NCBI GenBank assembly: GCA_036630325.1
Contig: CP142734.1
Span: 682,001-746,000 of the forward strand
Length of the DNA stretch: 64,000 bases
Reading direction: 5' to 3'
Origin: Vairimorpha necatrix
Taxonomy: Eukaryota
Below the pieces are notes generated by a model. It searched no databases. It had not been told where the DNA came from and saw only the letters and a list, made by a program, of their open reading frames with translations. Below are positions 3,244 to 44,867 of this stretch, one piece after another. The translations under genes were made by a program, and so were the position numbers. Within the stretch, counting starts at the first letter, position 1, and every line of letters begins with the position of its first letter.

Positions 3244-4260
3244 TTAAGTAGCGCCCAAGATTTTTGTCCCTGATAATCTGTTATAGTTTATTGCAGGGCT
3301 TAACCCTGCGATAGCAAGCTTTTTTTTGAGAGAAGAATCACTAGTATTCATATCCCACGTCACTACAATCTCCTTGTAGTTTCTTTTATCCTTCTCAATA
3401 CTTAGAAGGTTAATTACTTTACATAGTTTTTCGGCCTTTAACTCTCTCTCTTGTGGAACGTAAACATTGATTATTAAGACCTTTGTCCATCCCATACTAG
3501 TTTTGAATTCAACGACAGTTTGTAGAATATTGTCGTCATCCCCTTTTTTGGAACATCTTACTGCCCCGTCTTTTCTGACTAGAGTCATTAGACCCGGCCG
3601 ATACTTTCATATGGCTGGTGTCTCCACCACCATATACTTTTCTAGTCTCGTAGAACCTAAGGATTTCTTCCAAGTTTCTTGAAGACATAAGACTGTTGGC
3701 TTTTCCACTTTAAGGAGGTTTTCTAAGTCCTTCTTCTTGCCGTAGAAATGGTTGATGTTAAGACTATAGAGCTTGGCCTTTTCTATGGACTTGCATCTTC
3801 TTTTATTCTCCACCCTATCACAAGTTGGAATTTCTTTTAATATTTCTAGGCCAAGTATATCCATGGCTTCAGAAATTTCCTTTTTTCTTGACCTTCTGAC
3901 TACGCAGAAGGTGAAGTTAGCATCTTTTCTGCGATGCTTTCTGGTATAGATAAGAGAGTCCGATAATCCCGTTGACATTCTGGCTAACTGTTGTCGGAGT
4001 TCTTCTCCTTTGATATGGTTGGCCATTGTTTTAACTAGACACAACCCCTTTTGAATGCTTGTTCTCAGCATTCTAGCTTTTACCATGATATAGACATGAG
4101 ATTTAAATCTCAGTTTACATCCATTACTTTTATTAGTAAAGTTACTAATTTTTGGTGAATTGTTGGGTAGACAATAATTTTTGGTACAGCTAAGAAGCCG
4201 TATAACTTGTTTTTTATTAAAATTGTTGAGTCCCGAAGACATGTCTGTATTAAATTGCAT
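3244..4260 (-). pseudogene. Non-LTR retrotransposon (LINE) apurinic-endonuclease fragment, frameshifted and 3'-truncated
   Basis: APE motifs SLNIN, LCLQET, IINVYVP, WDMN (GDFN-like) in ORFs 3607-4260 and 3244-3588. Confidence 0.75.
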
Positions 4261-4394
4261 AATTTATTAGAATAAGTTTTCTTAAATAGTTTCAGTGAAA
4301 CATACGTTACAGATAATAGAAGATAACTGGTTTACGATGACTGAAACTGTCTGGTGTTTGAAACAAGATAGTACTTGTTTCATGTGTTACAACA
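4224..4394 (-). repeat. Probable solo LTR (~171 bp)
   Basis: TGTTG...CAACA termini, flanks AAAAT/AAAGT, shares TTTCTTAAATAGTTT with LTR 1983-2184. Confidence 0.5.
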
Positions 4395-5144
4395 AAAGTA
4401 ATTCTTATATCAGAGATTTTGGGATGTAATGTACAAAATGTAAGTTACACCCTAGATAAATTATATAAATTAAAAATTTATGATAAGTATTTGAACAAGC
4501 TGAAGCAGATAGGCGGACAAGATATCATTGTAGAAATAGATGAAAGTAAAATTGGCAAAAATAAGCATCATAGGAAAAGATTAGTCAAGGGGGTTTTGTG
4601 TTTCGGTATGGTGAAACGAACCGAAGCAAAGAAGATTATATTCGTAATTTTAAAGAAAAGAGACAGAGATACATTATTTCCAATCATGTTTAAGCATGTA
4701 AATTTTGAATCCGTAATTCATTCGGATATGTGGAGGACGTATGCAACGTTAAAAAATCATTATGCGGACCATAGGACTGTGAATCACAGTCAAACTTTTA
4801 GAGACAGAAAGACAGGTGTGCATACAAACACCATAGAAGGGAATTATAGGTCTAAAAGCTCCTGTACCGAATAAATGTAGGACTTATGAACTTGATGGGA
4901 TATATTTAGTTCTATATATGATTAAACAAAATGAGAGCATTGACATCATCAAAGCATTATTAAAATTATGTTTTTGATATATTTTCTTTTTTAAAGTTAA
5001 TTTTTATGCATTTTTACGTCTTAATCGTATTTTAGGTCTTTTTCTTCATTGCTCATCATTCCTTTCCTTTTTTAAAAAAGGGGCAATTTTTTAAAAATTT
5101 TGACCCCCCCCCCCAATTTTTTTACACAGATGCTGATTTTAGCC
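4395..5144 (+). mobile_element. Merlin transposon, 5'-truncated
   Basis: ORF 4419-4874 with VEIDESK, SDMW, HTNTIEG; right TIR ending ...GATTTTAGCC. Confidence 0.8.
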
Positions 5145-9053: not shown

Positions 9054-10094
9054 GGCTAAAGTCCACTTTAGCACGCAAAATTTGATATAGGGGTTTTTGT
9101 GTTTTTTTTGCTTCTTTTTAAAAATATGGAGGAGAGAATTTTGACGAGAGAAGAATTAGAAATCATATATAATGATTTAATGAGTAAGTTCTCGACTTAC
9201 CCCCACCCCTAAAAAAATAAAAAAAAATAAAAAAATAAATTATTTGACCCATAATGAGAATTAAAGAATTCAGAAAACTCATCTATAAAAAAATGAGTTA
9301 ATGCAATTTTTAATTGCAAAAAAAACATTTTGAGGGTTCCTATGTGCAATAAATGCAATATACCAATGACTCAAAATCGGACCAACACTGAAAACTATCG
9401 TTGTTATTCAAGACGTGAAGGTAAAAAATGTTCTAACAAAAGAACCATAATGAAACAAAGCGTTTTTAAGAACTCAAAATTGCCTATTGAGGATCTTTTA
9501 ATATTGCTTTGCGAATGGGTAAAGGGTTCAAGTAATTTGGCCGCCACGTTAGAACTTGATATAGGTAAATGTACGGTATCAAGATGGTTTACGCGTTTTA
9601 ATAACGCCGTGTACGTCTGCTATTCAACATATATAAACAATCAAACGATTGGCGGCGTCGGTTGTATTATTGAAATTGATGAAACTTTACTTGTAAAAAG
9701 TAAAAAACCATGCGGGAAGGGTTCTTCAATATCAAGTATGGGCAGTTGGAGGCGTTGTGAGAGGAAATGCGAATTCTTTTTTCTTTGAAATCGTAGAAAA
9801 TAGAACAAGAGTGATGTATCCCACTCTGAAATACGTCTCCAAAATACTTTTAGTAAAATTCAGTTTATTATTAATATTTTTATTGTTTAATCCAGGTCTG
9901 TCCCCGGTCGTTGTTCGGTCTGCTTCCTTAATTCTTTGTTGGTTGTTTTTCATCTTGTATTGTGGGTCAGGGCCAATTTTTATTTATAGCTTTAATTGTT
10001 TATTTGGTAAACAAACAAAACAAAACAAAACAAAACAAAATTAATAAATGTGTGGATCTTTAAGCAAGGATACCACAACCTGCCCTCTCCATTC

Positions 10095-10925
10095 TCAGGC
10101 CTGCAAATCAGTTGGTTTCGTTTTTATATTGTCAACATGTATCCACTCCTTCCTTTCGTTAATTTTTATCCAATTCTTTTTCTTACTCACTTCTGTAACC
10201 ATGTAAGGCCCAACGTAACAATCGTCAATCTTATTGCCTGTAAAATTCTCGACAAATATGGTATCTCCAACCTCTAAGGTGTTGTGCTCTTTGCTACTGA
10301 TATTTTCGGCCGCTCTGTCGCCTTTCTCGTCCGACCTTATTGTTATTTTAGGTTTATGATCTTTAGTTATTCTGTCCATGTCTAAGGCTGAATATCCTCT
10401 TAACACTGCATATGGTTGTTCTTGAATTCCCCTATGAAAATTTATATTTAGTCGTCTCATAATTAATTTTGTGACCAAATTTATTTCTTCGCCTTTATAC
10501 ATTCTGAGAACTTCGGCTATGGTCTGATTAAGCCTCTCGCTTATTCCGTTGGACGAAGGGTGATATGCTGGCGTCGCTATTTTCTTGATATTATTTTTTG
10601 TTAAGAATCGATCAAATTCCGCACTTGTATACTGCTTACCGTTATCGCAGATTAATGTTTGCTGGTAACCAAATTTCGTAAACCATTTCTCAAACTCTCT
10701 CGTCAGTTCTTTAGTGGTTGATTTCTCCAATAGTGTTACTCGCGTGTATCTACTGTATATATCTGTTATTGTCAGAAAGAATCCCCGTGTACTAAGTAAC
10801 GAATTTTCGTACTCTGCCAACTCGAAGGGACCAAAAATGTCTGTGCTAATCTTATCCATCAGCTTATCTGACTCAATTTTATACTTCTTCTTTTTCGTGT
10901 TTTCATCCTTTTGCATATTATGCAA
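10095..10925 (-). CDS. pol: Integrase core (frameshifted continuation of pol)
   Basis: DIFGP, CDNGKQY, SNGISERLN, GPY motif. Confidence 0.9.
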   Translation of the reverse strand: MHNMQKDENTKKKKYKIESDKLMDKISTDIFGPFELAEYENSLLSTRGFFLTITDIYSRYTRVTLLEKSTTKELTREFEKWFTKFGYQQTLICDNGKQYTSAEFDRFLTKNNIKKIATPAYHPSSNGISERLNQTIAEVLRMYKGEEINLVTKLIMRRLNINFHRGIQEQPYAVLRGYSALDMDRITKDHKPKITIRSDEKGDRAAENISSKEHNTLEVGDTIFVENFTGNKIDDCYVGPYMVTEVSKKKNWIKINERKEWIHVDNIKTKPTDLQA

Positions 10926-12694
10926 GTTTTACAATTTTTAACTGTTTCTGAAATCTTTCGTTTAATGTCTTTTATGTTATAGACATTTCTGATGTTCTGA
11001 TACATTACGGTTACTCCGGGATGAACAGTAAATTCATGTATTATCTTCAGAAATTCCTTAACGTTGTTGTCTTGTATTATATATCGATTATTCTCGTCTT
11101 TTAATTGTTTTCCATTTTCTTGTACTACCAACTTTTTCCTTATATATTTTTTTAGATCTTCCATGTCCTCGAATTTATCTATCATATAACAACGTGATAG
11201 TTTATCGGCTATGTGATTAGATGTTCCTTCAATCGTGGTCAGTTCTACATCGTATTCGTTTAGAATTAATTTCCATCGTTCGGTTCTTTTTGAAATTTCC
11301 TTATTTTCAAATATGCAATTTCTACTATCAGTCTGTAACTCTATCTTGTATCCCTGTATTAATGTTCTGTAAAATTCCAATGTTTTAACGATGGCAAACA
11401 TTTCTTTCTCTACAATCGTATAATTAAGCTCAGACTGCGAAAATTTTCTGCTATAATAGCCTATTATGCCGCGTTCTTGGAATAAGACTGCTCCCATCCC
11501 GTTATTTGACGCGTCGCATTGTATTGAGAACTTTTTGCTAAAGTCGGGCAGTCTTAGCTGTGCTGTAGTTTTGATCTCTTCTTTTATCTCTTTTAACGCC
11601 AAGTTTTGGGCGTCTCCCCATTTCTCTTTGCAATTTTTTTTCAATAGGCGCGATATACAAGAGACTCGCCTACTTACATCTGGTAAGAAATTGCGATACC
11701 AGGTGATTATTCCCATTATCTTCTGTATATCCTTTTTCCTGTATGGGATTGACTCTTCGTTTAATAGCTTATCGATATTTTTAGTATCTATTCTGATCCT
11801 GTCGTTTTCAATCACGTTTCCAAGTATTTCTAGTCTCTTGGTCGCAAACATGCTTTTTTCAAAATTTATTTTAACTCTGTAGTCCATTAGTCGGGTTAAT
11901 ACCTCTAGTAATTTCTCATTATGTTCTTTAGGAGTTGACCCATATATCACTATGTCGTCTATATAAACGATTATATTTTCGATTCCGTGTAATATATAAT
12001 TAATCGTCTTTTGGAATAATTTGGGTCCTGATTTTATTCCAAATGGTATTCGTTTATATCTGTATTGTTCTCCAAAAATCGTAAAGCTTGTAATGTCTCT
12101 GCTACTCTCTTCAAGTTCTAGTTGGTTAAACCCGTTTTTTAAATCAATTTTGCTGTAATAAGTGTTTCCTCCAAGTTTATATAAACTTTCAAAAATTTTT
12201 GGTATTATACATATTTCATCTTTTATAAATTTGTTAACTGTACGATAATCAACTACTAACCTCAGTTCCTTATTTTTCTTTTCGATAAAAAATGAAGGGC
12301 TAGCATAATAGTTTCTACCTCGTTCAATGATATCGTTAGTCAGTAACCTTGATATTTCCTTTCTAGCATCAGCCTCGTACTTTACTGGTACGGTATAGTA
12401 TTTAAGTTCCAGTCTATGGTCTCTAATTTTTTCATCAATATAAAGGCTTGGCGGTTCTACCTTAATTTTATCATGTTCTTCATTCTTTTTTATATATTCG
12501 GTCAATCTACGTGGTATATTCGTTTCATTTAAAATTTTCGATTCTTTTATTAATAAAATTCTGTCATATAGTATAGCATCTATTTCATCTGTTTCTATCT
12601 CTTCTGCGCCGATCATTGGTAAAATAGCGTTGTTTACAATGATTCTTTTGTTTTTATAGTCAAGTAACCAGCCGTTGTTTAGTAAAAAAATCAC
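10859..12694 (-). CDS. pol: Pol: reverse transcriptase, RNase H, integrase zinc finger
   Basis: LRLVVDYR, KIDLKNGF, YIDD, CDAS, ADKLSR, H-H-CC. Confidence 0.92.
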   Translation of the reverse strand: MIFLLNNGWLLDYKNKRIIVNNAILPMIGAEEIETDEIDAILYDRILLIKESKILNETNIPRRLTEYIKKNEEHDKIKVEPPSLYIDEKIRDHRLELKYYTVPVKYEADARKEISRLLTNDIIERGRNYYASPSFFIEKKNKELRLVVDYRTVNKFIKDEICIIPKIFESLYKLGGNTYYSKIDLKNGFNQLELEESSRDITSFTIFGEQYRYKRIPFGIKSGPKLFQKTINYILHGIENIIVYIDDIVIYGSTPKEHNEKLLEVLTRLMDYRVKINFEKSMFATKRLEILGNVIENDRIRIDTKNIDKLLNEESIPYRKKDIQKIMGIITWYRNFLPDVSRRVSCISRLLKKNCKEKWGDAQNLALKEIKEEIKTTAQLRLPDFSKKFSIQCDASNNGMGAVLFQERGIIGYYSRKFSQSELNYTIVEKEMFAIVKTLEFYRTLIQGYKIELQTDSRNCIFENKEISKRTERWKLILNEYDVELTTIEGTSNHIADKLSRCYMIDKFEDMEDLKKYIRKKLVVQENGKQLKDENNRYIIQDNNVKEFLKIIHEFTVHPGVTVMYQNIRNVYNIKDIKRKISETVKNCKTCIICKRMKTRKRRSIKLSQIS

Positions 12695-13937
12695 TTCCTA
12701 AGATCATTTTTTCTGGCAAATTCTTGAGAATATGTACATCTTCATAAGTCACTTTATTTAGTCCCGCAAGTCTTATTTCCACTCTGGCCTTTTTATTAGT
12801 CTTTCCTTTTGCTCCGTTCCCAAATATAAGTGATATTTCGTCAGTTTCTTGTGTCTTTATTTTTAACTTATCAGCTATTTCGGCACTCATAAAGCTCTTA
12901 TTCGCTCCGCTATCGATCATTATGTCAATTGGAGTTTCGTTGATGGATCCCCTTAATTGAGTCTTCTCAAAATTCTGAACGTTTTCCTTTATAAAGTACA
13001 CGTTTCTATTGTCTTTATTATCGTTATTTCTTTTGTAAAAATCTTTATCATATTTAGTGCATTCCTCAGTGGTGTGGTTAGAATATTTATGCAACTTGCA
13101 GTATTTGTCTTTTTTAAATTCTGAATGGTTATTATGCATTGGTCTATTATCATTACTATTGATGCTGCGAAATTCTCTAATCTCTTTAGCTCTTATCGAA
13201 ATTTTTATTTCTAAGCCCTTTAAAAATTCAAATGAAGCTTGGTAACTACCGAAGCCATATTCCAGTACTCTTCCGTACGTGAACTTCCCCAAGCCGGCAT
13301 GGAAAGCTTCCTCAAATAGTCTGTCAACCTCTTCATCCATTAGTTTTTCCATTGTCCTTACGATAGTTAGATTTTGTTTAATCGCGTCATAGTATTCTTG
13401 AATTTTCGTATAGTTTGTCTGGTGTATATTTAACAATTTTCTTCTGTAGTATCTTCGTTCCTCTAAAGGAAATTTTACCGAAATTAAATATTTCTTAATC
13501 TCATTCCATGTTTCATATTTATTGTAGTCCATAAGTTTATCGTCTTTTATCAGTTGTCTTAATATTGCTAACTGTATTCTTTTATCCCATTTGTTAACTT
13601 CTATTAATGTTTCAATTTCTTGGCACCATTTTAAGATGTCCAAACTGTCGATGTCTTCTATAATTTTTATTTCTTGGCTAAGTTTGTCTTCTAGTCCTTC
13701 TATCTTCATTGAGAAGGTTAGTGATTTAGTGTTAAATTGCTGTTCTTTTTTCTTCGTATCGTATTCTTTTGGGTTCTCGTCTTTTGAGCTCAAATTGATG
13801 TATCCCACTCTGAAATACGTCTCCAAAATACTTTTAGTAAAATTCAGTTTATTATTAATATTTTTATTGTTTAATCCAGGTCTGTCCCCGGTCGTTGTTC
13901 GGTCTGCTTCCTTAATTCTTTGTTGGTTGTTTTTCAT
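12660..13937 (-). CDS. gag: Gag + aspartic protease
   Basis: CKLHKYSNHTTEEC knuckle, IDSGA protease motif, ILGSDF; starts within the 5' LTR. Confidence 0.9.
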   Translation of the reverse strand: MKNNQQRIKEADRTTTGDRPGLNNKNINNKLNFTKSILETYFRVGYINLSSKDENPKEYDTKKKEQQFNTKSLTFSMKIEGLEDKLSQEIKIIEDIDSLDILKWCQEIETLIEVNKWDKRIQLAILRQLIKDDKLMDYNKYETWNEIKKYLISVKFPLEERRYYRRKLLNIHQTNYTKIQEYYDAIKQNLTIVRTMEKLMDEEVDRLFEEAFHAGLGKFTYGRVLEYGFGSYQASFEFLKGLEIKISIRAKEIREFRSINSNDNRPMHNNHSEFKKDKYCKLHKYSNHTTEECTKYDKDFYKRNNDNKDNRNVYFIKENVQNFEKTQLRGSINETPIDIMIDSGANKSFMSAEIADKLKIKTQETDEISLIFGNGAKGKTNKKARVEIRLAGLNKVTYEDVHILKNLPEKMILGSDFFTKQRLVT

Positions 13938-15178
13938 CTTGTATTGTGGGTCAGGGCCAATTTTTATTTATAGCTTTAATTGTTTATTTGGTAAACAAAC
14001 AAAACAAAACAAAACAAAACAAAATTAATAAATGTGTGGATCTTTAAGCAAGGATACCACAAAGAGCTACTCTTGTTAAATTAATCACAAGAAAAATTGC
14101 TCCGGGGACCACAATTGTGACAGATTGTTGGCGCGGCTATAGTGATATTCAAACAATCTGTGTAGAATATGAGTATCTACATTTGACTGTGAATCACAGC
14201 CAAAATTTTGTTGATAATATAACTGGTGCGCATACTCAGACTATAGAGGGAATGTGGTCGGTTCTTAAAAGAGAACTAAGAAAAAGCGGAACTAGTCATG
14301 GTACTATTATGAATCTTATAAGAAAGATTTACTATAATAGATTAAAATTAATATATCGTGAAAATCTATTAGATAAAATGTTAGAATTTTTTGAAATAGG
14401 TAATTTTAGTATTTTAGCATATAAAAGTATTCCTAAAATAGATTTTACAATTGTGGCATAATTTTTTTTTTAGGGGTGGGGGGTGTAGGTCAAGGACTTC
14501 ACCGATTTAATATAGAAATTTCAAAATAAAACTTGTGATATATGTTATGGTAGAATGAGGACAGAAAGAAAAGACAGTAGTATCTTAAAGTGTACTTGGG
14601 AAGATTGTAAAAAGTCAATTTCAATTTGGCATGATACGTTCAATGATAATTGTAAACTCAATCATATAACATGTTTACAGATACTTAACATGTGGGTTAT
14701 CGGTTATTCTCGGAAGCATATTTGTCAAATTTTAGGTTGTACGAAAAAATCAATATCTTCATTATTGAAAAAACTTAAGGAAATATGCATTTACGATAAA
14801 TATTTATCTACTCTGAACATGCTTGGTGAAGAAGGGATAATAGTTGAGATCGACGAATCAAAAATTGGAAAAAATAAATACAATAGAGGTAAATTAGTGA
14901 AAGGCTTCTGGTGTTTTGGCATGGTCGAACGAACCATAGAACGTAGAATCATAATGCTTCATATTAAAAAAAGGGATAAAGAAACACTTACTGATCTTTT
15001 GGTGAAATATGTAAGTAGAGATAGCATTGTATATAGCGATATGTGGAGAGCCTACAATTCTTTGGGGTACTACATTTAGCTAACATAATAAAATTAATCA
15101 TTCATTGTATTACAGGGACCCAAATACGGGAGTTCATACCAATACCATAGAAGGTAATTGGCGTTCCCTTGAAAATTC

Positions 15179-16998: not shown

Positions 16999-17444
16999 AC
17001 AAAGTGCATTAAAAGCAAGTGTTAAGAGTATTAGATGAGGTTGGTTTAAATTTAAATGCGTCAAAATGTGAATAAAGAAAAGAAGAGCTAAGGATTTTGA
17101 GAGTAACAGTTGGGAATAATGATATTAGAATTAATGACGATAGGATTAAGCAAAATGTAGATATGCCTGTGCCCACGTCAATGAAAGATTTGGAATCGTT
17201 TTTGGGATTGATTAATTATTACAGTCGATTTTTGAAAAATGTATTTGAGCATAAAGAATATTTATATGTGTTATAGCCTGATGCTATGTCAAGAATTCTT
17301 GATATTTAATTTTTATCAAAAATTTCATTAATCATATTTTGTGTTTATTTTCCATAATGAGGGGTAAAAATAATAAGGATATATAACATCCCCCCTCCAA
17401 GACGGTAGTCTCATACTAGAACTCATTAATCCCAAGCAGATCTT

Positions 17445-18977
17445 TTAAATCATAATGCCGCTTTTCACGATCCTACCATTTTCCAAACTAACTAAGTACG
17501 AGTCACCTCCGCAAATTTCCTTGATAACACCATATCCTAAAAACCTTCCTTTCTCATACTTACTACAACCCGATAAGTTCTCTTTCTTCGCTACCCTAAC
17601 TCTCTGACCTTTATAGAATTTCTCTCTTTTGCGAGCCACAAACCTCCTACTATAAAATCCTTCAGGTCCATTCTCGATCATAACATGGCCCGTTTCGTCT
17701 CTTGAGGCCTCAAACGGTGTACATCTCAACCCTTCATGATAGCTGTTATTATAACGCCATATACATCTATTAACCTTGGCTTCAAAATCCACAGCATCAT
17801 CTTTCAATATTCCTTCTCTTATGGTTCCTATTACCCTTTCCACTCTTCCATTACTTCTATGACTTTCTACGCTTACTTTCCTATGTAATACATTTTCCTC
17901 TGAACACCAATTCCTCATATATTCATTACTAAATTCTTTACCGTTGTCAGTAATTATTTCTACCGGGTTCATTCCTGATCCACACAACTGTTTTAAAAAT
18001 CCTACAACCGAGCTTCCGCGTTTGTCCTCTATTACTTTTCCCCAAACGATCCTAGTATAATAATCAATCACGACCAACACATATTTCCCTAAATCTCTAA
18101 ACTCAATCAAATCCAAAGCAACCTTTTCAAAATAAAATCTTGAACTAACAAAATTACAACCACCACTCTTTTTCCTATTATGTATTTGGCAAACTTCACA
18201 CTTCTTTAAAACATCCTCGATATCCTTCTTCATACCCGGCAAATAAAATTCAAACTTCATTGCATAGTACACTGGTCCTAAACTTCTATGTCCCAAATTT
18301 TCATGAGCATTGACAATTAAACCTTCACGCAATTCTTTCTTTGGAATCTCCGCTTCTCTACCAGAGTCAAATACCCAAATTTCCTTTCCATCAACAACTT
18401 TAACATGCTTGTCCCATTTACCCTGTGCCTGTTTAATACTTCTCTCCTTATTCATTAGCGTTTTCTCATTTTCATGTACCCTACTCAGTGCATCTGCTAC
18501 AACCATGGTACTAGGCTCTCTATATTCAATACTAAAGTCGAACTCTTGAATCTTTTCAATCCACCTGTTAATTCTATTATTGTTAAATGCTGGTTTATTT
18601 CTAATCTCGATCAATGCCTTATGATCAGTTTCTACCCTAAATCTTCTTCCGCGTAGTTCATATTCAAACTTTTTAATTCCCCAAAAGACTGCATACATCT
18701 CCTTCTCACTGATTCCATATCTCTTTTCCGTAGGCGTAAACTTTTTTGATGCCCACTGTACTGGTACCCAATTACCTTGATCATCTTCCTGCATTAAAAC
18801 AGCACCCATTCCAACATTACTCGCATCCGTGCGTAACAAAAATTCCTTATTATAATTAACAATTGCTAAACCTTTTAAATCCCTAATCACTTCCCTTAAA
18901 CTAATATATTCTTTTTCCATTTCTTCTGTCCATTTCCAATTACTTCCTCGTCCTTTAAGAGAATCCGTCAACGCCAA
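17445..18977 (-). CDS. pol: RNase H + integrase
   Basis: TDAS, TDHKAL, ADALSR, HHCC, TDNGKEF, SNGRVER. Confidence 0.92.
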   Translation of the reverse strand: MALTDSLKGRGSNWKWTEEMEKEYISLREVIRDLKGLAIVNYNKEFLLRTDASNVGMGAVLMQEDDQGNWVPVQWASKKFTPTEKRYGISEKEMYAVFWGIKKFEYELRGRRFRVETDHKALIEIRNKPAFNNNRINRWIEKIQEFDFSIEYREPSTMVVADALSRVHENEKTLMNKERSIKQAQGKWDKHVKVVDGKEIWVFDSGREAEIPKKELREGLIVNAHENLGHRSLGPVYYAMKFEFYLPGMKKDIEDVLKKCEVCQIHNRKKSGGCNFVSSRFYFEKVALDLIEFRDLGKYVLVVIDYYTRIVWGKVIEDKRGSSVVGFLKQLCGSGMNPVEIITDNGKEFSNEYMRNWCSEENVLHRKVSVESHRSNGRVERVIGTIREGILKDDAVDFEAKVNRCIWRYNNSYHEGLRCTPFEASRDETGHVMIENGPEGFYSRRFVARKREKFYKGQRVRVAKKENLSGCSKYEKGRFLGYGVIKEICGGDSYLVSLENGRIVKSGIMI

Positions 18978-19070
18978 TGTACGTTTTGCATAATTATCAA
19001 TATGATTTCTAAACCATCCAGCCAGCCCAAGAAACTTCCTAACATCTGATACACACTCCGGTTTGGGAAA

Positions 19071-19508
19071 TTATAACGCTTCATTTTGCTTTATTTCAGA
19101 TGGCAGTATCTCCTTGCCATTAACTGTTACTCCTAACAACATCACCTCTCGTTTACATAATTGAACCTTAGCCAAATTAATTTTCATATTATTCTCCTCT
19201 AATATATCCACAGCCTCTTTCGACAATTTGTCGTGACCCTCTCTTGTCTTACTATGAATCACAATATCGTCCATATAAATTTCGATTCCCTTACCAATAA
19301 ATTTTTCAAAAATCCCATTCATTATTCTTTGTAATATCTGCGGAGAGTTTTTAAACCCCATGACCATCGAATTCCACTCGTATACCTTTTTATTAAACTC
19401 AAAAGCCGTCTTAAACCTTTCCTTCTCTTCAATCTCAATACTATAAAACCCCTCCTTTAGATCTATCACGGTAAAAAAATTCAGATCCCTGTGTACTTCT
19501 AATAACAT
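19071..19508 (-). CDS. pol: Reverse transcriptase core (frameshifted piece)
   Basis: IDLKEGF, MGFKNSP, YMDD. Confidence 0.88.
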   Translation of the reverse strand: MLLEVHRDLNFFTVIDLKEGFYSIEIEEKERFKTAFEFNKKVYEWNSMVMGFKNSPQILQRIMNGIFEKFIGKGIEIYMDDIVIHSKTREGHDKLSKEAVDILEENNMKINLAKVQLCKREVMLLGVTVNGKEILPSEIKQNEAL

Positions 19509-20490
19509 CTCTTATCCTAGTTAACTCATAAGGGTCCTTCTCTACAATGTCATTAAGAGCAATTAAATTACTTACTAATCTTATATCACCATTCGGTTTC
19601 TCAATCGCTCTAATGGGATTTCTCCAGTCAGATGTCGACCTTCTAATTATCTTTCTTCTTTCCAAACTATTAATATAATCTTCCGTCTTCTTCAACAAAG
19701 CCTGAGCTATAGCCTGCCCTTTTTTAACAACTTTCTTGCCTTCTTGAGTCTTGATAATATATTTTTCAACCTTACAAAAACTAATATCTTCATCCTCTCT
19801 TCCTCCTACCCGTGAAATAATCTCCTCTAAATACGCGATGCCTCTTACATCCCTTCTCAACAGAACTCTCTTATTATTGTCCCTTTTGCTATAATCTTGT
19901 ATATCCCCTAAATTTTTCTTCTTACGTTTTCCACCATCAACATTATAATAATCACATTTGTCCGAATTGGAATCGTCATCACATTTACCCTCTAAGTCTA
20001 ATTGCACTTTACATTTACCAACATAATTAAAACTACTTTTATTTCTTCTGTCTTCAGAATCTTGCCTCATTCCCCTACAAAATCTAACACTATGGCCTAA
20101 CTTCCCACAATTGTAGCAACGCATATTCTTTTTATTTTCCCCACGAGACAACTTATTCTTCTCCTCAAATTTAGCCCATAACGCTAGGGACAACTCTTCA
20201 AATTCTTTTTTTCTCACTTGTTCCTTTTCCTCCTGAATAGCTAGCAACTCTAATTTTTCCTCAATTTCCTTCCAACTACCCTCTTGCGAGATCCTCTCAA
20301 CAATAAAATTTCTCAATAAAATAGAACCTCTCCTAAAAATTTCTAACTTAAATCCACACTCATCAATTTTCTCTAAAAACAACTCATAAACAATCCTTTT
20401 AACCTCTTTTAATAATATTCTAGCCTCTTGGCCACGGTCCTCCTTTGTAGACCCATTTTCTGGTATCGCCCCCATGTGTTTATTTTCCAT
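19441..20490 (-). CDS. gag: Short Gag (CCHC) fused directly to RT N-terminus
   Basis: CYNCGKLGHSVRFC then WRNPIRAIEKPNGDIRLVSNL; ATG inside LTR. Confidence 0.85.
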   Translation of the reverse strand: MENKHMGAIPENGSTKEDRGQEARILLKEVKRIVYELFLEKIDECGFKLEIFRRGSILLRNFIVERISQEGSWKEIEEKLELLAIQEEKEQVRKKEFEELSLALWAKFEEKNKLSRGENKKNMRCYNCGKLGHSVRFCRGMRQDSEDRRNKSSFNYVGKCKVQLDLEGKCDDDSNSDKCDYYNVDGGKRKKKNLGDIQDYSKRDNNKRVLLRRDVRGIAYLEEIISRVGGREDEDISFCKVEKYIIKTQEGKKVVKKGQAIAQALLKKTEDYINSLERRKIIRRSTSDWRNPIRAIEKPNGDIRLVSNLIALNDIVEKDPYELTRIRDVIRSTQGSEFFYRDRSKGGVL

Positions 20491-20712
20491 AATGAGGGGT
20501 AAAAATAATAAGGATATATAACATATTTTACAAAAAATATTTAAATAAAAGTTTTAAAAGAAGGATAAGATAAAATGAGAAGAGAAACATTTGATCAAGA
20601 GAGGGCCATACTAGGACAAGGGCCAAGGTACAATGAATATAACAATATTAAAAATAAAAGCATTATAAGTATAATTGAAATCTGTTTTAAAGACGGGTGT
20701 TTTCCCCGTGGG

Positions 20713-21810
20713 GGCGCTAGGGCCTATTCCCGTGTAATGAACGTAAAAAAACGGCATTTCCCGGAAATAGGCCCTAAACTGCGAAATTTTTACAACCCCC
20801 AAAAATGAATAATTTTGAAGAAGAACCAAAAAATTCGAGATCTGACATTTTTTCTTCAAATAAAGCTGCCATGGCCTTTATTCAAAGGCATGACTTACTT
20901 GAAGAATTTAAAACATGCTCGAAATGTTATGAGAGCATGGTTTTGGAACATGATATTTCTTATTCGAACGGTTTTCGATTCAGATGTACTAACTTATTTT
21001 GTAGAAAATCCAAATCAGTTTTTGAGGTGCTAAAAATTTCAAGTCCAAAGATAGACACAACCGAATACTTATTCATAATATATTCATGGCTCAAAAAAAA
21101 TTATGAATATAATATTAATAAAAAAAACTTCGGTTTTTAAATACTATAAAAAGAATTAAAAGGAATATTATAGAAGTATTAACTGAAGATAATAAGAATA
21201 CATGGGAGAAATTGAGGCCAGAGCACCCAATACAAGTGGATGAGAGTGTTATAATAAAAGGAAAACTTATTAAGTCAACATCTGAAATGTATGATTCAAT
21301 TAGTAAAGCTACTTTGATAATTGGCGCAGTAGAAAAAAAAAACTAGAAACTAGTTCTTAAAGTTTTACCAAACAGACAAAAAGAAACTTTCTTCGACCTT
21401 TTCTCTGAAAATATTAGTCCTATGTCTGTAATAAAAACAGATGGGCGTAGATCCTACCCATACGCTGTTGCTGGGATTGGTGGAGTACATAAAATCGTGA
21501 ACTATGTGGAAGGATTCACCAATTCTGATGGAGACCACACTAATTTAATAGAATGTGAGTGGTCTCATTTCAAATCGGACATCAAAACGAGGAAAGGAAT
21601 ACCAGGTTATTCAATGCCAGGGTATATAGAAGAATATGTTTGGAGGAGAAGAAATTTAGTTACCCATGATTCCAAAGCCTATAAAGACGCCTTTTTAACT
21701 CTCTTAAAACTTTTAATTTGAAATATATAATTGAGTTTTTTTTCTTTAATTTTTTGTTAAAGGGTCCCCCCTTTAAACAAAAAAATTACCCGGGAATAGG
21801 CCCTAGAACC
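20713..21810 (+). mobile_element. Merlin transposon
   Basis: TIR GG..CTAGGGCCTATTCCCG, TSD CCCGTGGG, transposase pieces 20805-21140 and 21422-21721 (TDG, HTNLIECEW). Confidence 0.9.
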
Positions 21811-22808
21811 CCCGTGGGCATGACAATATGGTTTACTGAAGAAGGGAAATGAAGGAAAGTTTAAGACGATTGAGGATGATGAGAAGAACAAGAAATCAAT
21901 ATAGAATTGAAGTTAGAAGTTAGGAAAACAACATGGTTGGCGTTGCTCTGAAGGAGAGGGAAATTTATTTTATACACGGACGCTTCTGACATAGAGAGTG
22001 GGGCGATTTTGACACAGATACAGGATGGAGAAGAGAAAATTGTTAGGTTTTTTTTAGTAAAGTTCATTAATGGGAAATGAACTATTCTGCTACAGAAAAG
22101 AAATGTTGAATGTAATTAAGGCATTGACAGAGTTAAGATCGGATTTAATTTGGATGAGTTTGAGCTTCGAACGGATCATAAGGCATTGCTGTGGTTGTTT
22201 TCGTTACGAAATATGAACGGAAGATTAGCAAGATGGTCATTACTGTTACAAGAATATGATTTTGAAATAAAACACATTAAAGGTGAAGAAAATCCAGCGG
22301 ATGTATTAAGTAGAACTGCTTGTATTGATGCAGTATTAGAGGTTTAGGAAGTGTCAGTAGAAAAGGGCTTTAAGAAACATGAGATGTTAGCGCATGGTTC
22401 AGCAAAGGCAGTTTGTTATGGTTTGAAAGGTGATTAAAGAGAGATATCAAAAGTAAAAGTAAGAGATATACTTAAGAATTGTGGGGTTTGTAAACAGATG
22501 GGCGTTTTAAAATTTAATAGATCAAATAATAGTATTCAATCATTAGGTACTTTTAAATTATGGGAGATTGATTTAATGGGTCCATTGAGATTGGTTTCAG
22601 AAGAAAACAAGTTTATTTTAACAATGAATGATCATTGGACAAGATGTTTGAGTGTGTAGGGGTGAAGGCAAAAGATATGGGAGTTATTGTTGAAGCAGTT
22701 GAACGATGCATATTGAAAAAATATGGCATACGGGGGAAGATTTTGTCGGATAACGGTAAAGAGTTCAGGAACAGAATTACGGCGGAATTGGCCAATAAGT
22801 ATGGATTT

Positions 22809-41451: not shown

Positions 41452-44400
41452 TGTTGATAGATTTTTTAATATTTTATACGTTACCCCTAATTTTATGAAG
41501 AATAATAAACATATTAACACGGTTGAGAATGAGATAGAAACCATGAATAAAGAGATTATAGAGAGAATATTTTAAATGAGATACGAGGACTTGAGTTTAT
41601 GTCCTTCTTTAAGAATATGGAGAACGAAAGAGAGATTGATTGGATTGTGGTTAGAGCCAGTTACAATTTGATCGATTGGCACTACGAGACTATTGAAGAT
41701 CGTAAAAAAATTAGCTATGTGAAATAATACAGATGGTTATAGGGGCATTCGGAAGTAAAACATTGTCTTTGGCAAAACTTTATCGAATGAAGCAGGACAA
41801 GACGAAAGCATTAAACAGTACATCGAGAATGCAAAGTCTTCATCGCAGCTGTTTAATCTTAAACAAGAAGAAGTAATTGAGATTATTATAGGTGGGATAA
41901 AAGACGAATTTGGAAGAGTCAAACATTTTTTAGAAAAAAGTGGATCTTTAGTTGAAAAAAAAATTTTAAAATTGTAAAATTATCGAAGAGAATGTTTAGA
42001 AGAAATTAAGAGAAAACAGAAGATGAATGTTTTACTCAAAAAACTTTAAATTTTAAAAATTTAAACAAATAAACAAGTAATTAAATGCTACAATTGTAAA
42101 AAAGTAGAACATGTTGCAAGAAACTGTCGTATATAAACCAATTACAATCAACAAAGAAGTAAGAAAGTAGATGAATTTACCACTGAACTATCAGACATTA
42201 TTTAAAATAAAAAAAATTTAGTTTATTTTTATGGACAAGAGGTTCCTGTTACTTTTGACACTGGATCAACTTACAACTTTATCAGTAACGCGGTAGCTGC
42301 AAAGTTTAATCTACCATTTCAATGGAGTTCTAAAGAAATGTAATTTAAGACCTGCCTTGAAGAGCCTTTCATATTAAACAAACATACATTTATTGAATTG
42401 ACGTATAAAGACCAAGATTATCGTTTAAAATTTTTTATTTTACCTAAAGTGAGAATCAAAAAAATATTGATCGGTAAAAATGGGATGAGGGAGATGATGG
42501 AAACAGAAGATGAAGTATATGTGTGCAAAATCAAGGCGGAAGCGGGCAAAAAAGTAGCAGAGCTTGTATAATCATCGTCAAAGAACATGGAAGAAGGCGT
42601 TGAAATAGCGATTCAGAAGCTTTTAAGCAAGGGATATATTCAGGAGTCTATGTCTACTTGGCTTAAAAATCTTCGGCCGGGAATAAAATCAGATGGTTCT
42701 ATTCGAGTGACAACATATTTAGTAGCGTTAAATAAAATAGTTGAACTTGATAGGGGTTCCCTCCTCATAATGGACGAGATTTTATGTAATTTGCGTGGAA
42801 TGAAATTTCCCCAAAGTTAGATTGAAAGATGGTTTTGAAATATAGTTGGTGGAAAGAGATAGATTCAAGACGGCATTTAGATTCAAACATAGACTGTACG
42901 AATGGAAGGTGATGCCACAAGGATTCAAAAATTCTCTTGCTATATTCCAGGGGTTCGTGGATTTTGCACTCAAAGAAGAAATAGGAAAGAGTTGTTTCTG
43001 TTATGTGGATGATATTTTAATTTTTGGCAGAGATGAAAGGGAACATGACGAGGCATATAAAAGAATTATAGAAGCTTTAGATAGAAACAAGCTTAAAATA
43101 AATGAAGATAAATCAAGTTCTAGATGGCGTAAAATCGACTTTTAGGACACCATATAGAAGAAGGTAAGATATTCCCGTTAATTAATAAATTACAAGGAAT
43201 GAAGAATTTAAAATCACCAAGGGATAAGCAACAGTTGCAGGATTTTTAGGAGCTATTAACTATTATAGAAAATTTATTAAAGACTGCTCCGGTTCATGTA
43301 GTCCACTGTATGAATTATTAAAAGACAATAAAACTTCATTTGGATAGAGAAAGAAGAGAAACTTTTTAGGAAGATCAACAAGATTCTCAAAATGAACACA
43401 GGATTATTCCAGCCAGATTATACTAAAGATTTTATTTTGACAACGGACGCTTCTAAGTATGGAATCGCAGCAGTACTTTGTCAAATTATTGATGAAGAGG
43501 AGATTCTTATTGCATTGCTTCTAGAAAAACAAAAAGATCATGAAATTAATCACGGTATTAGTGAGAAAGAGTGTTTGGCCATGTTATGGGGCATGAAAAA
43601 TTTTAATTACTTTTTATATGGTGCGAAATTTGAGGTAATTACAGATTATAAAGCAATAGAAGTGCTTAATAAAGGTGAAATAAATTCCCCGAGAATTCGA
43701 AGATGGTTAGATAGAATGTCTAGATATTGCTTTAAGGTGACGTACAGACAAGGCAAAGACATGCCTCACGTAGATTGTTTGAGCAGAAATTTTGATTACG
43801 TTGAAGACGAGGAAATGAAGGATGATAGTAAACAACTGGAAGAAGACAAAGAAAACAGGAAGGATATAGAAATCAAGAATTATAAGGTTATGAAAAGAAA
43901 TTGTGCAAGCTATTCATTAAGAACTATTACATAGAGGGAAACAATAATTAAAGTATGAAATTACAAAAAGAGGACTCGAAATTAATAATGTAGAAAACTA
44001 GTTTAGATATTAGTAAATGAATGTGAGATATGTTGTCAATATAATTCAAAAAAGAAAAAAATGTTTATTTTTGTTGCGGCGTTTGGAAGAGGAGAAAAGG
44101 TTGCGGTGGATATAATAGGCCCAATAGGGAAGCAAAATGTTATATCGGCTATTGAATATTTTACTTCAGAAAGCTTTGCAAAGTTCTTAGTTTAAGAAAA
44201 TATGAAAAGATAGTAAGGTTTATAGAAGAAGTCAATGAAAATTTAAGATAAAAACACTTTTATTAGATCAGTCAAATAAAAATTTCCGTTCAAGGCCGTC
44301 AATTTTTGTAAGCACTATAATATTAAGTTACATTATACGTCTCCCTACCATCATAAATCCAATGGTAGAGTAGAGAGATTTATTAGGACACTACAAGATC

Positions 44401-44867
44401 TAATCTTTAAGATTAAGGAAGACAGTTTTTTAAAAACGAAGTTAAAAAGAGCTATAGAGATTTATAACAACATATTTAATACTGGAATCTTAATGGCTTT
44501 CCAAGAAGCACCCTTGTTTAATGAACAAGACAAACGTAAATTGATTTAAATGGAAAATATAATAACATACACTAAAAAGAATGGATAAGGTGAAGAATAT
44601 CATTTTTTAGACTAGGGGAGGTTGTGTTAAATAGACAAGAAGGGAATAGAGGAAAATGTAGCCCCAAGTTGAAGGTTCGAAGATGTGTTTATTTTGCTTT
44701 AAAAAATATGCGTATATAATCAAAATAGAAAAAAGGAAAATAAAAAGACGCGCTTCTCAGTTAAAGCTTTTAGTTGATGAACCAACTTTGTACATGGAGA
44801 TGTTGATAGGTATAAGATATTTTATATGTTACTCCCAATTTTATGAATAATAATAAACATATTAACA
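41452..44867 (+). mobile_element. Decayed gypsy element with ~68-bp LTRs
   Basis: Diverged TGTTGATAG...ATTAACA repeats 41452-41519 and 44801-44867; CCHC, FDTGS, YVDD, TDAS, SNGRVER; TSD poorly preserved. Confidence 0.85.

Follow-up and report, generated by a model that had tools for sequence, protein, structure and literature searches.

How short can the long terminal repeats (LTRs) of a retrotransposon become while the element can still be copied and inserted? This question is raised by a stretch of 64,000 nt from the microsporidian Vairimorpha necatrix (contig CP142734.1, positions 682,001 to 746,000 of the forward strand; hereafter, the window). On its minus strand lies a Ty3/gypsy-type element with identical terminal repeats of just 49 nt. 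We conclude that this is probably one defective copy of a multi-copy family, from a Nosema/Vairimorpha-like microsporidian, whose natural LTR is 49 nt long and can be read as a unique 3′ region (U3) plus a repeated region (R). A preliminary description, drawn from the sequence of the window, had proposed a genuine LTR retrotransposon with a natural LTR of about 49 nt. That proposal is supported here by contigs from public sequencing runs and by the LTRs of relatives.

A Ty3/gypsy-type element with 49-nt terminal repeats

The element spans positions 17340–20523 (3184 bp, minus strand) and ends in two identical TG...CA repeats of 49 nt, with the sequence TGTTATATATCCTTATTATTTTTACCCCTCATTATGGAAAATAAACACA on the minus strand (Table 1). 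A repeat search of the window gave a single exact direct repeat, 50 nt in length (17340–17389 and 20475–20524). The TG...CA unit makes up 49 of these nucleotides. The one matching base left over belongs to a purine tract at one end, as its last A, and to the flank at the other, as its first base. When the repeat was compared with the whole window by blastn, only these two copies were found, the next best match being 13 nt; nor was a second copy of the element interior found within the 64 kb.

Both flanks carry TATTT on the plus strand, a 5-nt match with a chance of 0.0018 at the composition of the window (32% G+C). Directly inside the 5′ LTR lies TGGGGGCGATACCAG, a TGG-initiated stretch resembling a primer-binding site, and directly before the 3′ LTR lies the polypurine tract GGAGGGGGGA. 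The tract is kept in relatives, with GAGGGGGGA and GGAGGAGGGGA preceding TGTT in two loci described below (L084 and L081, respectively). Together, the repeats, the 5-bp duplication, the TGG site and the purine tract cannot be due to chance. The identical repeats, the TATTT duplication and the adjoining primer site and purine tract of the preliminary description were all recovered by the exact repeat search and the reading of the flanks.

Table 1. Features of the short-LTR element and of related sequence in the window (positions are those of the window; strand is given as + or –, with a dot for unstranded features)
Feature	Position	Strand	Evidence
5′ LTR, 49 nt, TGTTAT...AACACA	20475–20523	–	Exact repeat
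Contents of 5′ LTR: TATATA; CCCC; gag ATG; AATAAA	20515–20520; 20496–20499; 20488–20490; 20479–20484	–	Sequence
3′ LTR, identical 49 nt	17340–17388	–	Exact repeat
Target-site duplication beside 5′ LTR, TATTT on +	20524–20528	.	Chance 0.0018
Target-site duplication beside 3′ LTR, TATTT on +	17335–17339	.	Sequence; contig of run X1 skips 3189 nt
Primer-binding-site-like TGGGGGCGATACCAG, within gag frame	20460–20474	–	Position and sequence
Polypurine tract GGAGGGGGGA, abutting 3′ LTR	17389–17398	–	Sequence
Junctions to unrelated sequence	X1: 20525; X2: 17390, 20474 (two contigs), 20475, 20525; X15: 17339		Run contigs
Gag and N-terminal reverse transcriptase, polyprotein residues 1–339	19474–20490	–	tblastn with P0121, 98% identity, frame –2
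Zinc knuckle, CX2CX4HX4C (candidate)	∼20077–20118	–	zf-CCHC, 18.7 bits, below cut-off
Rest of reverse transcriptase (∼19122–19493), RNase H (∼18540–18932), integrase zinc and core domains (∼17880–18341)	17463–19478	–	Pfam
Polyprotein residues 338–1009	17463–19478	–	tblastn with P0121, 97% identity, frame –3
Lesion 1, frame change in homopolymer run, mid-reverse transcriptase	19473–19480	–	Frames –2 and –3 meet
Lesion 2, in-frame stop in reverse transcriptase	19071–19073	–	Stop opposite residue 473 of P0121
Lesion 3, frame change near 17461, and C-terminal 15 codons	17416–17462	–	Alignment with P0121 ends at residue 1009 of 1024
LTRs of second short-LTR element	41452–41519 and 44801–44867	+	CCCC, ATG and AATAAA in same order

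The same boundaries recur at other insertion sites

Part of the element stretch is held by 20 of 24 listed public sequencing runs, three of which contain at least half of its words. Four of the 24 were compared (X1, X2, X3 and X15), all as Logan contigs. X1 and X15 each contain one contig of 3165 nt, which equals 3135 nt (the period of one LTR plus interior) plus 30. These lengths suggest a cycle of one LTR plus interior in an assembly graph, with k presumably 31.

Among the matches listed, seven contigs (six rows, in three of the four runs) turn into unrelated sequence exactly at the repeat ends (Table 1). These contigs are other insertion sites with the same boundaries, and the family is multi-copy. 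Extension of similarity beyond 49 bp in raw reads had been named beforehand as a check on the repeat length; in the run contigs, the similarity stops exactly where the repeat does. A contig of X1 connects 17332 with 20522 and thereby skips 3189 nt, the length of the element (3184 nt) plus the duplication (5 nt). Loose ends at 17361 and 17373 represent variant LTR sequences of related subfamilies.

The boundary could be drawn one base further out. All three other-site junction contigs listed on that side (X1 at 20525, X2 at 17390 and 20525) share with the window the base that adjoins the repeat. Either the repeat could therefore have a length of 50 nt and the duplication one of 4 bp, or the target site could be biased.

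Relatives carry LTRs of 58–68 nt

A scan of prokaryote genome contigs with an alignment of the Pol region returned seven loci, on microsporidian-like contigs binned into metagenome-assembled genomes from gut. The repeat search was applied to the four longest, and two of these have both ends. In L084 (35% Pol identity), two repeats of 67 nt, 100% identical, lie 3463 nt apart; those of L086 (31% Pol identity) are 58 nt long, likewise 100% identical, and 3306 nt apart. No second LTR was found on the contigs of L081 and L083, and the lengths of 38 and 47 nt read from one end of these loci are not counted as evidence. A further short-LTR element, closest to L086, lies in the window itself, on the plus strand (41452–44867). 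It is decayed, and its LTRs of 68 and 67 nt are ∼85% identical. Its interior is filled with stops, and CGG rather than TGG follows its 5′ LTR. Asked whether other copies carry longer LTRs, then, the distant relatives (31–35% Pol identity) answer with 58, 67 and ∼68 nt rather than with long repeats.

A third gypsy element of the window (9812–14062, minus strand) is bounded by identical 267-nt LTRs (9812–10078 and 13796–14062) and a CTCTT duplication. Short LTRs, shared by the relatives, are thus a trait of this group of microsporidian gypsy elements; as the 267-nt LTRs show, they do not characterize the whole genome. The 267-nt LTR contains TATAAATA...CCC...ATG, with an open frame that continues from the LTR into the interior, and no TGG start follows the 5′ LTR.

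A metagenome scan with the Pol alignment gave, in the best 80 of 499 relatives, generic gypsy sequences 24–38% identical and no close relative. A scan of viral contigs gave weak matches to the integrase core only, at 25–29% identity.

The intact form would encode one polyprotein across nearly the whole element

Three reading-frame pieces span the interior of the window copy. Pfam domains follow one another in the Ty3/gypsy order: reverse transcriptase (RT; RVT_1, 1.1e-27), RT_RNaseH (3.9e-33), Integrase_H2C2 (1.5e-11) and rve (3e-10). A CX2CX4HX4C motif is present, for which zf-CCHC scores 18.7 bits against a cut-off of 20.8. The homologues number 442; the best matches come from Nosema granulosis (77% identity) and Vairimorpha necatrix (61%), and further good ones from V. 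apis, Pseudoloma, Enteropsectra and Nematocida. One homologue, P0121, is an uninterrupted database protein of 1024 amino acids (aa) from a contig of 3797 bp, 97–98% identical to the window pieces, and it begins (MENKYM) at the ATG inside the LTR. In its intact form, the open reading frame (ORF) would run from this ATG (LTR nt 34, position 20490) to a TAG at 17416–17418, 17 nt before the purine tract, and so cover 3075 of the 3184 nt (97%).

A non-autonomous element of the TRIM/LARD type was also considered. It is ruled out by the full Gag–RT–RNase H–integrase ORF, intact in P0121.

In the window copy, three lesions interrupt this frame (Table 1). At the first, contigs of all four runs are one base shorter, at 19473 or 19480. 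At the second, contigs of three of the four have another base at 19073, X3 having no cover there. At the third, contigs of three of the four have one extra base behind 17461. The two indels may be sequencing errors of the window assembly, since both sit in homopolymers. The preliminary description had called the element recently mobile, and for this copy the claim is not supported: identity at 49 of 49 positions is insufficient, as 98 compared bases say little on age, and the copy has two frameshifts and a stop. Recent activity would be better argued for the family, from the intact 1024-aa homologue and the several insertion junctions in other runs.

A subclade that appears to lack its own protease

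Seven members of the element's clade cover the region from the zinc knuckle to the RT anchor W.NP (P0121, P0002, P0005, the L081 ORF, P0008, P0011 and P0016), with a spacing of 104–151 aa. The protease motif D[TS]G occurs between the two landmarks in none of them. Pfam likewise gave no protease match in the four clade proteins scanned (the L081 ORF, P0002, P0005 and P0011), and none in the window copy. L084 and L086 do carry DTG, at residues 228 and 225, with weak gag-asp_proteas matches. The subclade of the window element thus seems to have lost its protease, with long open frames kept in several sources. The region between the two landmarks, at 19708–20076 in the window element, shows no conservation in the alignment. 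For the Gag region, a single-sequence AlphaFold model had a mean predicted local distance difference test (pLDDT) score of 36.3, too poor for judging the capsid fold.

These results bear on a different account of the element. It may be real but non-autonomous, having lost its protease and being copied only with the help of protease-bearing gypsy families of the same genome or of a host protease, with the short LTR as part of a stripped-down parasitic lifestyle. The missing motif and the missing Pfam matches fit this account, as do the existence of protease-bearing relatives (L084 and L086) and the presence of a decayed L086-like element in the same window. Nonetheless, long intact ORFs without a protease occur in several sources and species, which suggests selection on the element's own coding capacity. 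Moreover, the short LTRs are left unexplained, as L084 and L086 have them together with a protease. We regard dependence on a helper as rather unlikely, though it is compatible with a natural 49-nt LTR and not opposed to it.

The LTR appears to combine a host-type promoter, a start codon and a poly(A)-type hexamer

Four LTR pairs were compared: those of the window element (49 nt), L084 (67 nt), L086 (58 nt) and the second short-LTR element of the window (68/67 nt). All four start with TGTT, end with ACA, contain CCC and are 76–81% A+T. The CCC run lies at nt 25–28 of 49 in the window element, 33–36 of 68 in the second window element, 44–46 of 67 in L084 and 37–39 of 58 in L086. Three of the four pairs have an ATG 5–7 nt past the CCC run, at which the polyprotein frame opens. 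L086 has its first ATG at the junction instead, formed from the final A of the LTR and the TG of the TGG behind it. AATAAA is present in three pairs and ATTAAA in the fourth; in L086, AATAAA precedes CCC. By shuffling, the chance of AATAAA is 0.06–0.25 per LTR, and the recurrence of a poly(A)-type hexamer in such short LTRs is suggestive, not proof.

Mapped in order, the window LTR holds TATATA (nt 4–9), a T-rich run, CCCC (nt 25–28), ATG (nt 34–36) and AATAAA (nt 40–45). The gag ATG and four further codons, five in all, lie within it. This map supports the preliminary view of an LTR that holds hardly anything besides a CCC-type promoter and the start of gag. In Encephalitozoon cuniculi, mRNA 5′ ends lie 1–7 nt ahead of the AUG, with a CCC motif just upstream that is preceded by an AAATTT-like or A/T-rich signal, and AAUAAA, loosely used, lies ∼20 nt before the cleavage site (PMC2803860, accessible sections). 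The same sections give upstream sequences such as AACTATTTTTACCCTTCAAA and AATTTTTTTTACCCCACAA for ribosomal-protein genes of Nosema ceranae (PMC2803860), and CCC enrichment near start codons is reported for this species in the accessible part of a second paper (PMC2685015). The window LTR has the microsporidian promoter form in CCTTATTATTTTTACCCCTCATT-ATG, with TATATA ∼25 nt further upstream, and its TTATTTTTACCCCTCATT resembles the N. ceranae sequence AACTATTTTTACCCTTCAAA.

Coding sequence continues through the primer site. A second in-frame ATG (20473–20475) consists of the LTR's last A and the start of the primer-site-like stretch, and the same CA/TGG junction gives an in-frame ATG in L084, L086 and L083. 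The primer-site position is therefore translated. The N-termini read M-E-N-K-H-M-G in the window element and M-T-H-I-N-M-A in L084; L083 itself is a decayed element. The N-terminus of P0011 (MIQVNHMA) fits the junction-ATG pattern.

At the other end, the Pol ORF of L086 crosses the stretch before the 3′ LTR and stops 15 nt inside the LTR (3505–3552), and the Pol frame of L081 likewise crosses this stretch and stops inside the LTR (2700–2737). The interior of such an element is left without any non-coding base. The C-termini of L081 (...EEGMLGY) and P0016 (...GGGMLDPI) correspond to the translated purine tract plus TGTT....

A proposed replication cycle with a minimal R

We propose the following use of the 49 nt. 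U3 would comprise nt 1 to ∼30, with an integrase-recognition end (TGTTAT) overlapping TATATA, the T-rich run and CCCC, and its promoter would be the short core form found ahead of microsporidian genes. Transcription would start at nt 27–33, 1–7 nt before the ATG at nt 34. R would be the remaining 16–22 nt to the LTR end. The unique 5′ region (U5) would have little or no length, because with AATAAA at nt 40–45 the RNA would be expected to end no earlier than the 3′ LTR does. The primer would be a host transfer RNA (tRNA) bound to the TGG... site, which also supplies the first Gag codons. Minus-strand strong-stop DNA would accordingly measure ∼16–22 nt plus primer and would transfer to the copy of R in the 3′ LTR. 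The purine tract would prime the plus strand, and insertion by integrase would duplicate 5 bp of the target.

The first 7 nt of the primer-site-like stretch equal what we take to be a tRNA-Pro-type site, a match that serves as a lead only. Four primer-site reverse complements were searched in three contaminated metagenome-assembled genomes with related contigs, and the matches were the elements themselves or chance matches. ARAGORN found no tRNA at 10 of the loci newly matched by the primer-site searches.

Self-priming of the Tf1 type was also tried. It depends on pairing of the primer site with the 5′ end of the RNA. In the window element, the longest complementarity of the LTR to the 25 nt that follow it is only 5 nt, which 1303 of 2000 shuffles reach. 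This mode was rejected.

Alternatively, the LTRs could be true LTRs whose first strand transfer is not mediated by a classical R, being replaced by read-through RNA from tandem copies or one-LTR circles, or by homology of a few bases. With transcription starting just before the ATG, no more than ∼22 nt would be left for R plus U5, and the AATAAA of L086, placed before CCC, would leave even less. The X1 and X15 contigs close as cycles of LTR plus interior, a pattern that one-LTR circles or tandems would also give. However, a de Bruijn graph gives such cycles for any multi-copy LTR element, and they prove nothing. Retroviral R regions of ∼15–21 nt are functional, and a classical first transfer is thus possible. 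In addition, the duplication, the exact ends and the purine tract are in keeping with a linear DNA with two LTRs that was integrated in the ordinary way. We therefore consider a non-classical transfer improbable.

Weighing a natural 49-nt LTR

That the short repeats are what remains of longer LTRs after a deletion, or a product of chance or assembly, is hardly credible: the single copy in the 64-kb window would fit, but independent contigs from three of the other four runs have their breaks at these two boundaries, the cycle contigs of X1 and X15 share the 3135-nt period, three further elements with LTRs of 58–68 nt have the same internal layout, and the exact 50-nt repeat is accompanied by the duplication (0.0018), the TGG site and the purine tract.

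Several points weigh against a natural 49-nt LTR in a functioning family. The window copy, with two frameshifts and one stop, reads as defective and could not be autonomous. No recognisable protease is present in the clade, and the autonomy of even intact copies is unproven. AATAAA lies 4 nt from the LTR end, so that the RNA would end in flanking DNA or be cleaved unusually close to the hexamer. As for the primer, the window contains no tRNA gene and no Rfam match at gathering score. Matching flank duplications were not found for L084 and L086, whose metagenome-assembled repeat flanks may be chimeric. Finally, the empty-site contig of X1 has a depth of 3.19, and its shorter side extends over only 37 nt. 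In an X1 flank piece of equal depth, taken as part of this contig, 9 of 64 flank bases differ, and because of these differences the empty site appears to be a related site and not the window locus.

Beyond the family with the 49-nt LTR, we tentatively raise a broader possibility. A whole microsporidian Ty3/gypsy clade may be active with LTRs shorter than those of any other known retroelement, at 49–68 nt and possibly 38. Its members would have as U3 a core promoter of ∼30 nt, an R of at most ∼22 nt and no U5. A single ORF would begin inside the 5′ LTR, cross the primer site and, in some members, continue over the purine tract into the 3′ LTR, and one subclade would be without its own protease.

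Comparison with known elements

Microsporidia-specific gypsy clades have been described (PMC4202319, accessible part). With microsporidian Ty3/gypsy elements, such as Nbr of Nosema bombycis and the Anncaliia algerae families, the window element shares the RT–RNase H–integrase order and homology, TG...CA LTRs, a 5-bp duplication and a purine tract. Its nearest annotated proteins are from Nosema granulosis, Vairimorpha necatrix, V. apis and Pseudoloma. According to the available text (PMC2474625), 'nearly all' N. bombycis elements encode Gag, protease, RT, RNase H and integrase; they mostly have a protease, whereas the clade of the window element is without one. An LTR length for any microsporidian element was not found in the literature searched, including the accessible parts of PMC4202319, PMC2474625, PMC13174016 and PMC2685015. 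We found no prior description of the element in the literature searched; an earlier record, for example in Repbase, may exist.

The Metaviridae profile gives non-coding LTRs, with a U3 of 200–1200 nt and a U5 of 75–250 nt, and an interior of 3 to >15 kb (PMC7879559). The window element resembles this profile in the order of LTR, putative primer site, gag-pol, purine tract and LTR, in a candidate tRNA-type site adjoining the 5′ LTR, in the approximately ten purines before the 3′ LTR, and in its single gag-pol ORF, which is an allowed form (PMC7879559). In contrast to the profile, its LTR is 49 nt in full length and includes the start codon and five codons, its putative primer site is coding, and the entire element measures 3184 bp, of which 97% would be ORF in the intact form. 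We therefore call it a variant and not an ordinary member of Metaviridae, because its LTR is 49 nt and coding against the canonical size.

Ty1 of yeast, a copia-type element with LTRs of >300 bp, has its gag start in the 5′ LTR and its primer site within gag. The window element is like Ty1 in having a start codon in the LTR and a coding primer site. It differs in that the start codon and the LTR end are 16 nt apart, and that the LTR's CA and the TGG of the primer site give rise to another ATG. An LTR-internal gag start is also found in the 267-bp-LTR element of the same window. Elements of the Tf1/sushi type are similar in their single gag-pol ORF and gypsy-type Pol, and some homologues of the window element are automatically named 'Tf2 polyprotein'.

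To our knowledge, mag of Bombyx mori has the shortest LTRs listed for Metaviridae, 77 bp, a value that our literature search did not confirm. Like mag, the window element is of the Ty3/gypsy type with unusually short LTRs, and its 49 nt are shorter still. Among modelled animal gypsy groups, mean LTR lengths are 174–695 nt, with 174 and 213 for the Mag groups (PMC3601003). The end motifs of the Mag A group, TGTTRKR...AACA (PMC3601003), resemble the window LTR, TGTTATA...AACACA.

Neighbourhood of the element

Older gypsy Pol fragments on the plus strand flank the element, with an RT part at 17013–17273 and an RNase H–integrase part at 21907–22644. The element seems to have inserted into an older retroelement. 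Beside it lies an inverted repeat pair (20698–20738 and 21785–21825) of 41 nt, 80% complementary and 1046 nt apart, possibly the termini of a small DNA transposon. Elsewhere in the window, a 71-nt repeat family has six copies (at 2350, 2697, 4770, 14180, 15084 and 27331) with the coding motif ...GVHTNTIEG. An ORF at 4362–4874 (plus strand) matches Pfam DDE_Tnp_IS1595 (1e-14). These are DNA transposons of the Merlin/IS1595 type, which makes the window a transposon-rich island.

Implications

An LTR of 49 nt still appears to carry each signal that can be named, with integrase ends, a minimal promoter of the host type, a start codon and a poly(A)-type hexamer. A natural element of this kind makes the minimum of R, U3 and U5 needed for both strand transfers directly testable. 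The protease-less subclade, in turn, raises the question of how Gag-Pol is matured.

The preliminary description also held that LTR finders with a minimum of ∼100 bp would miss the element. A minimum of 100 is indeed a published LTRharvest setting, in the accessible text of 10.1101/137141. With a 100-bp minimum LTR, such elements would be missed or labelled as LTR-less, which affects microsporidian repeat counts and the dating of insertions. If an active short-LTR clade exists, the LTR-element content of microsporidia would be systematically under-called by tools with this minimum.

Such a clade would also set a natural lower limit to what reverse transcription and integration need. In the very short 5′ untranslated region and the coding primer site and purine tract, genome compaction would act on a selfish element as it does on the genes of its microsporidian host.

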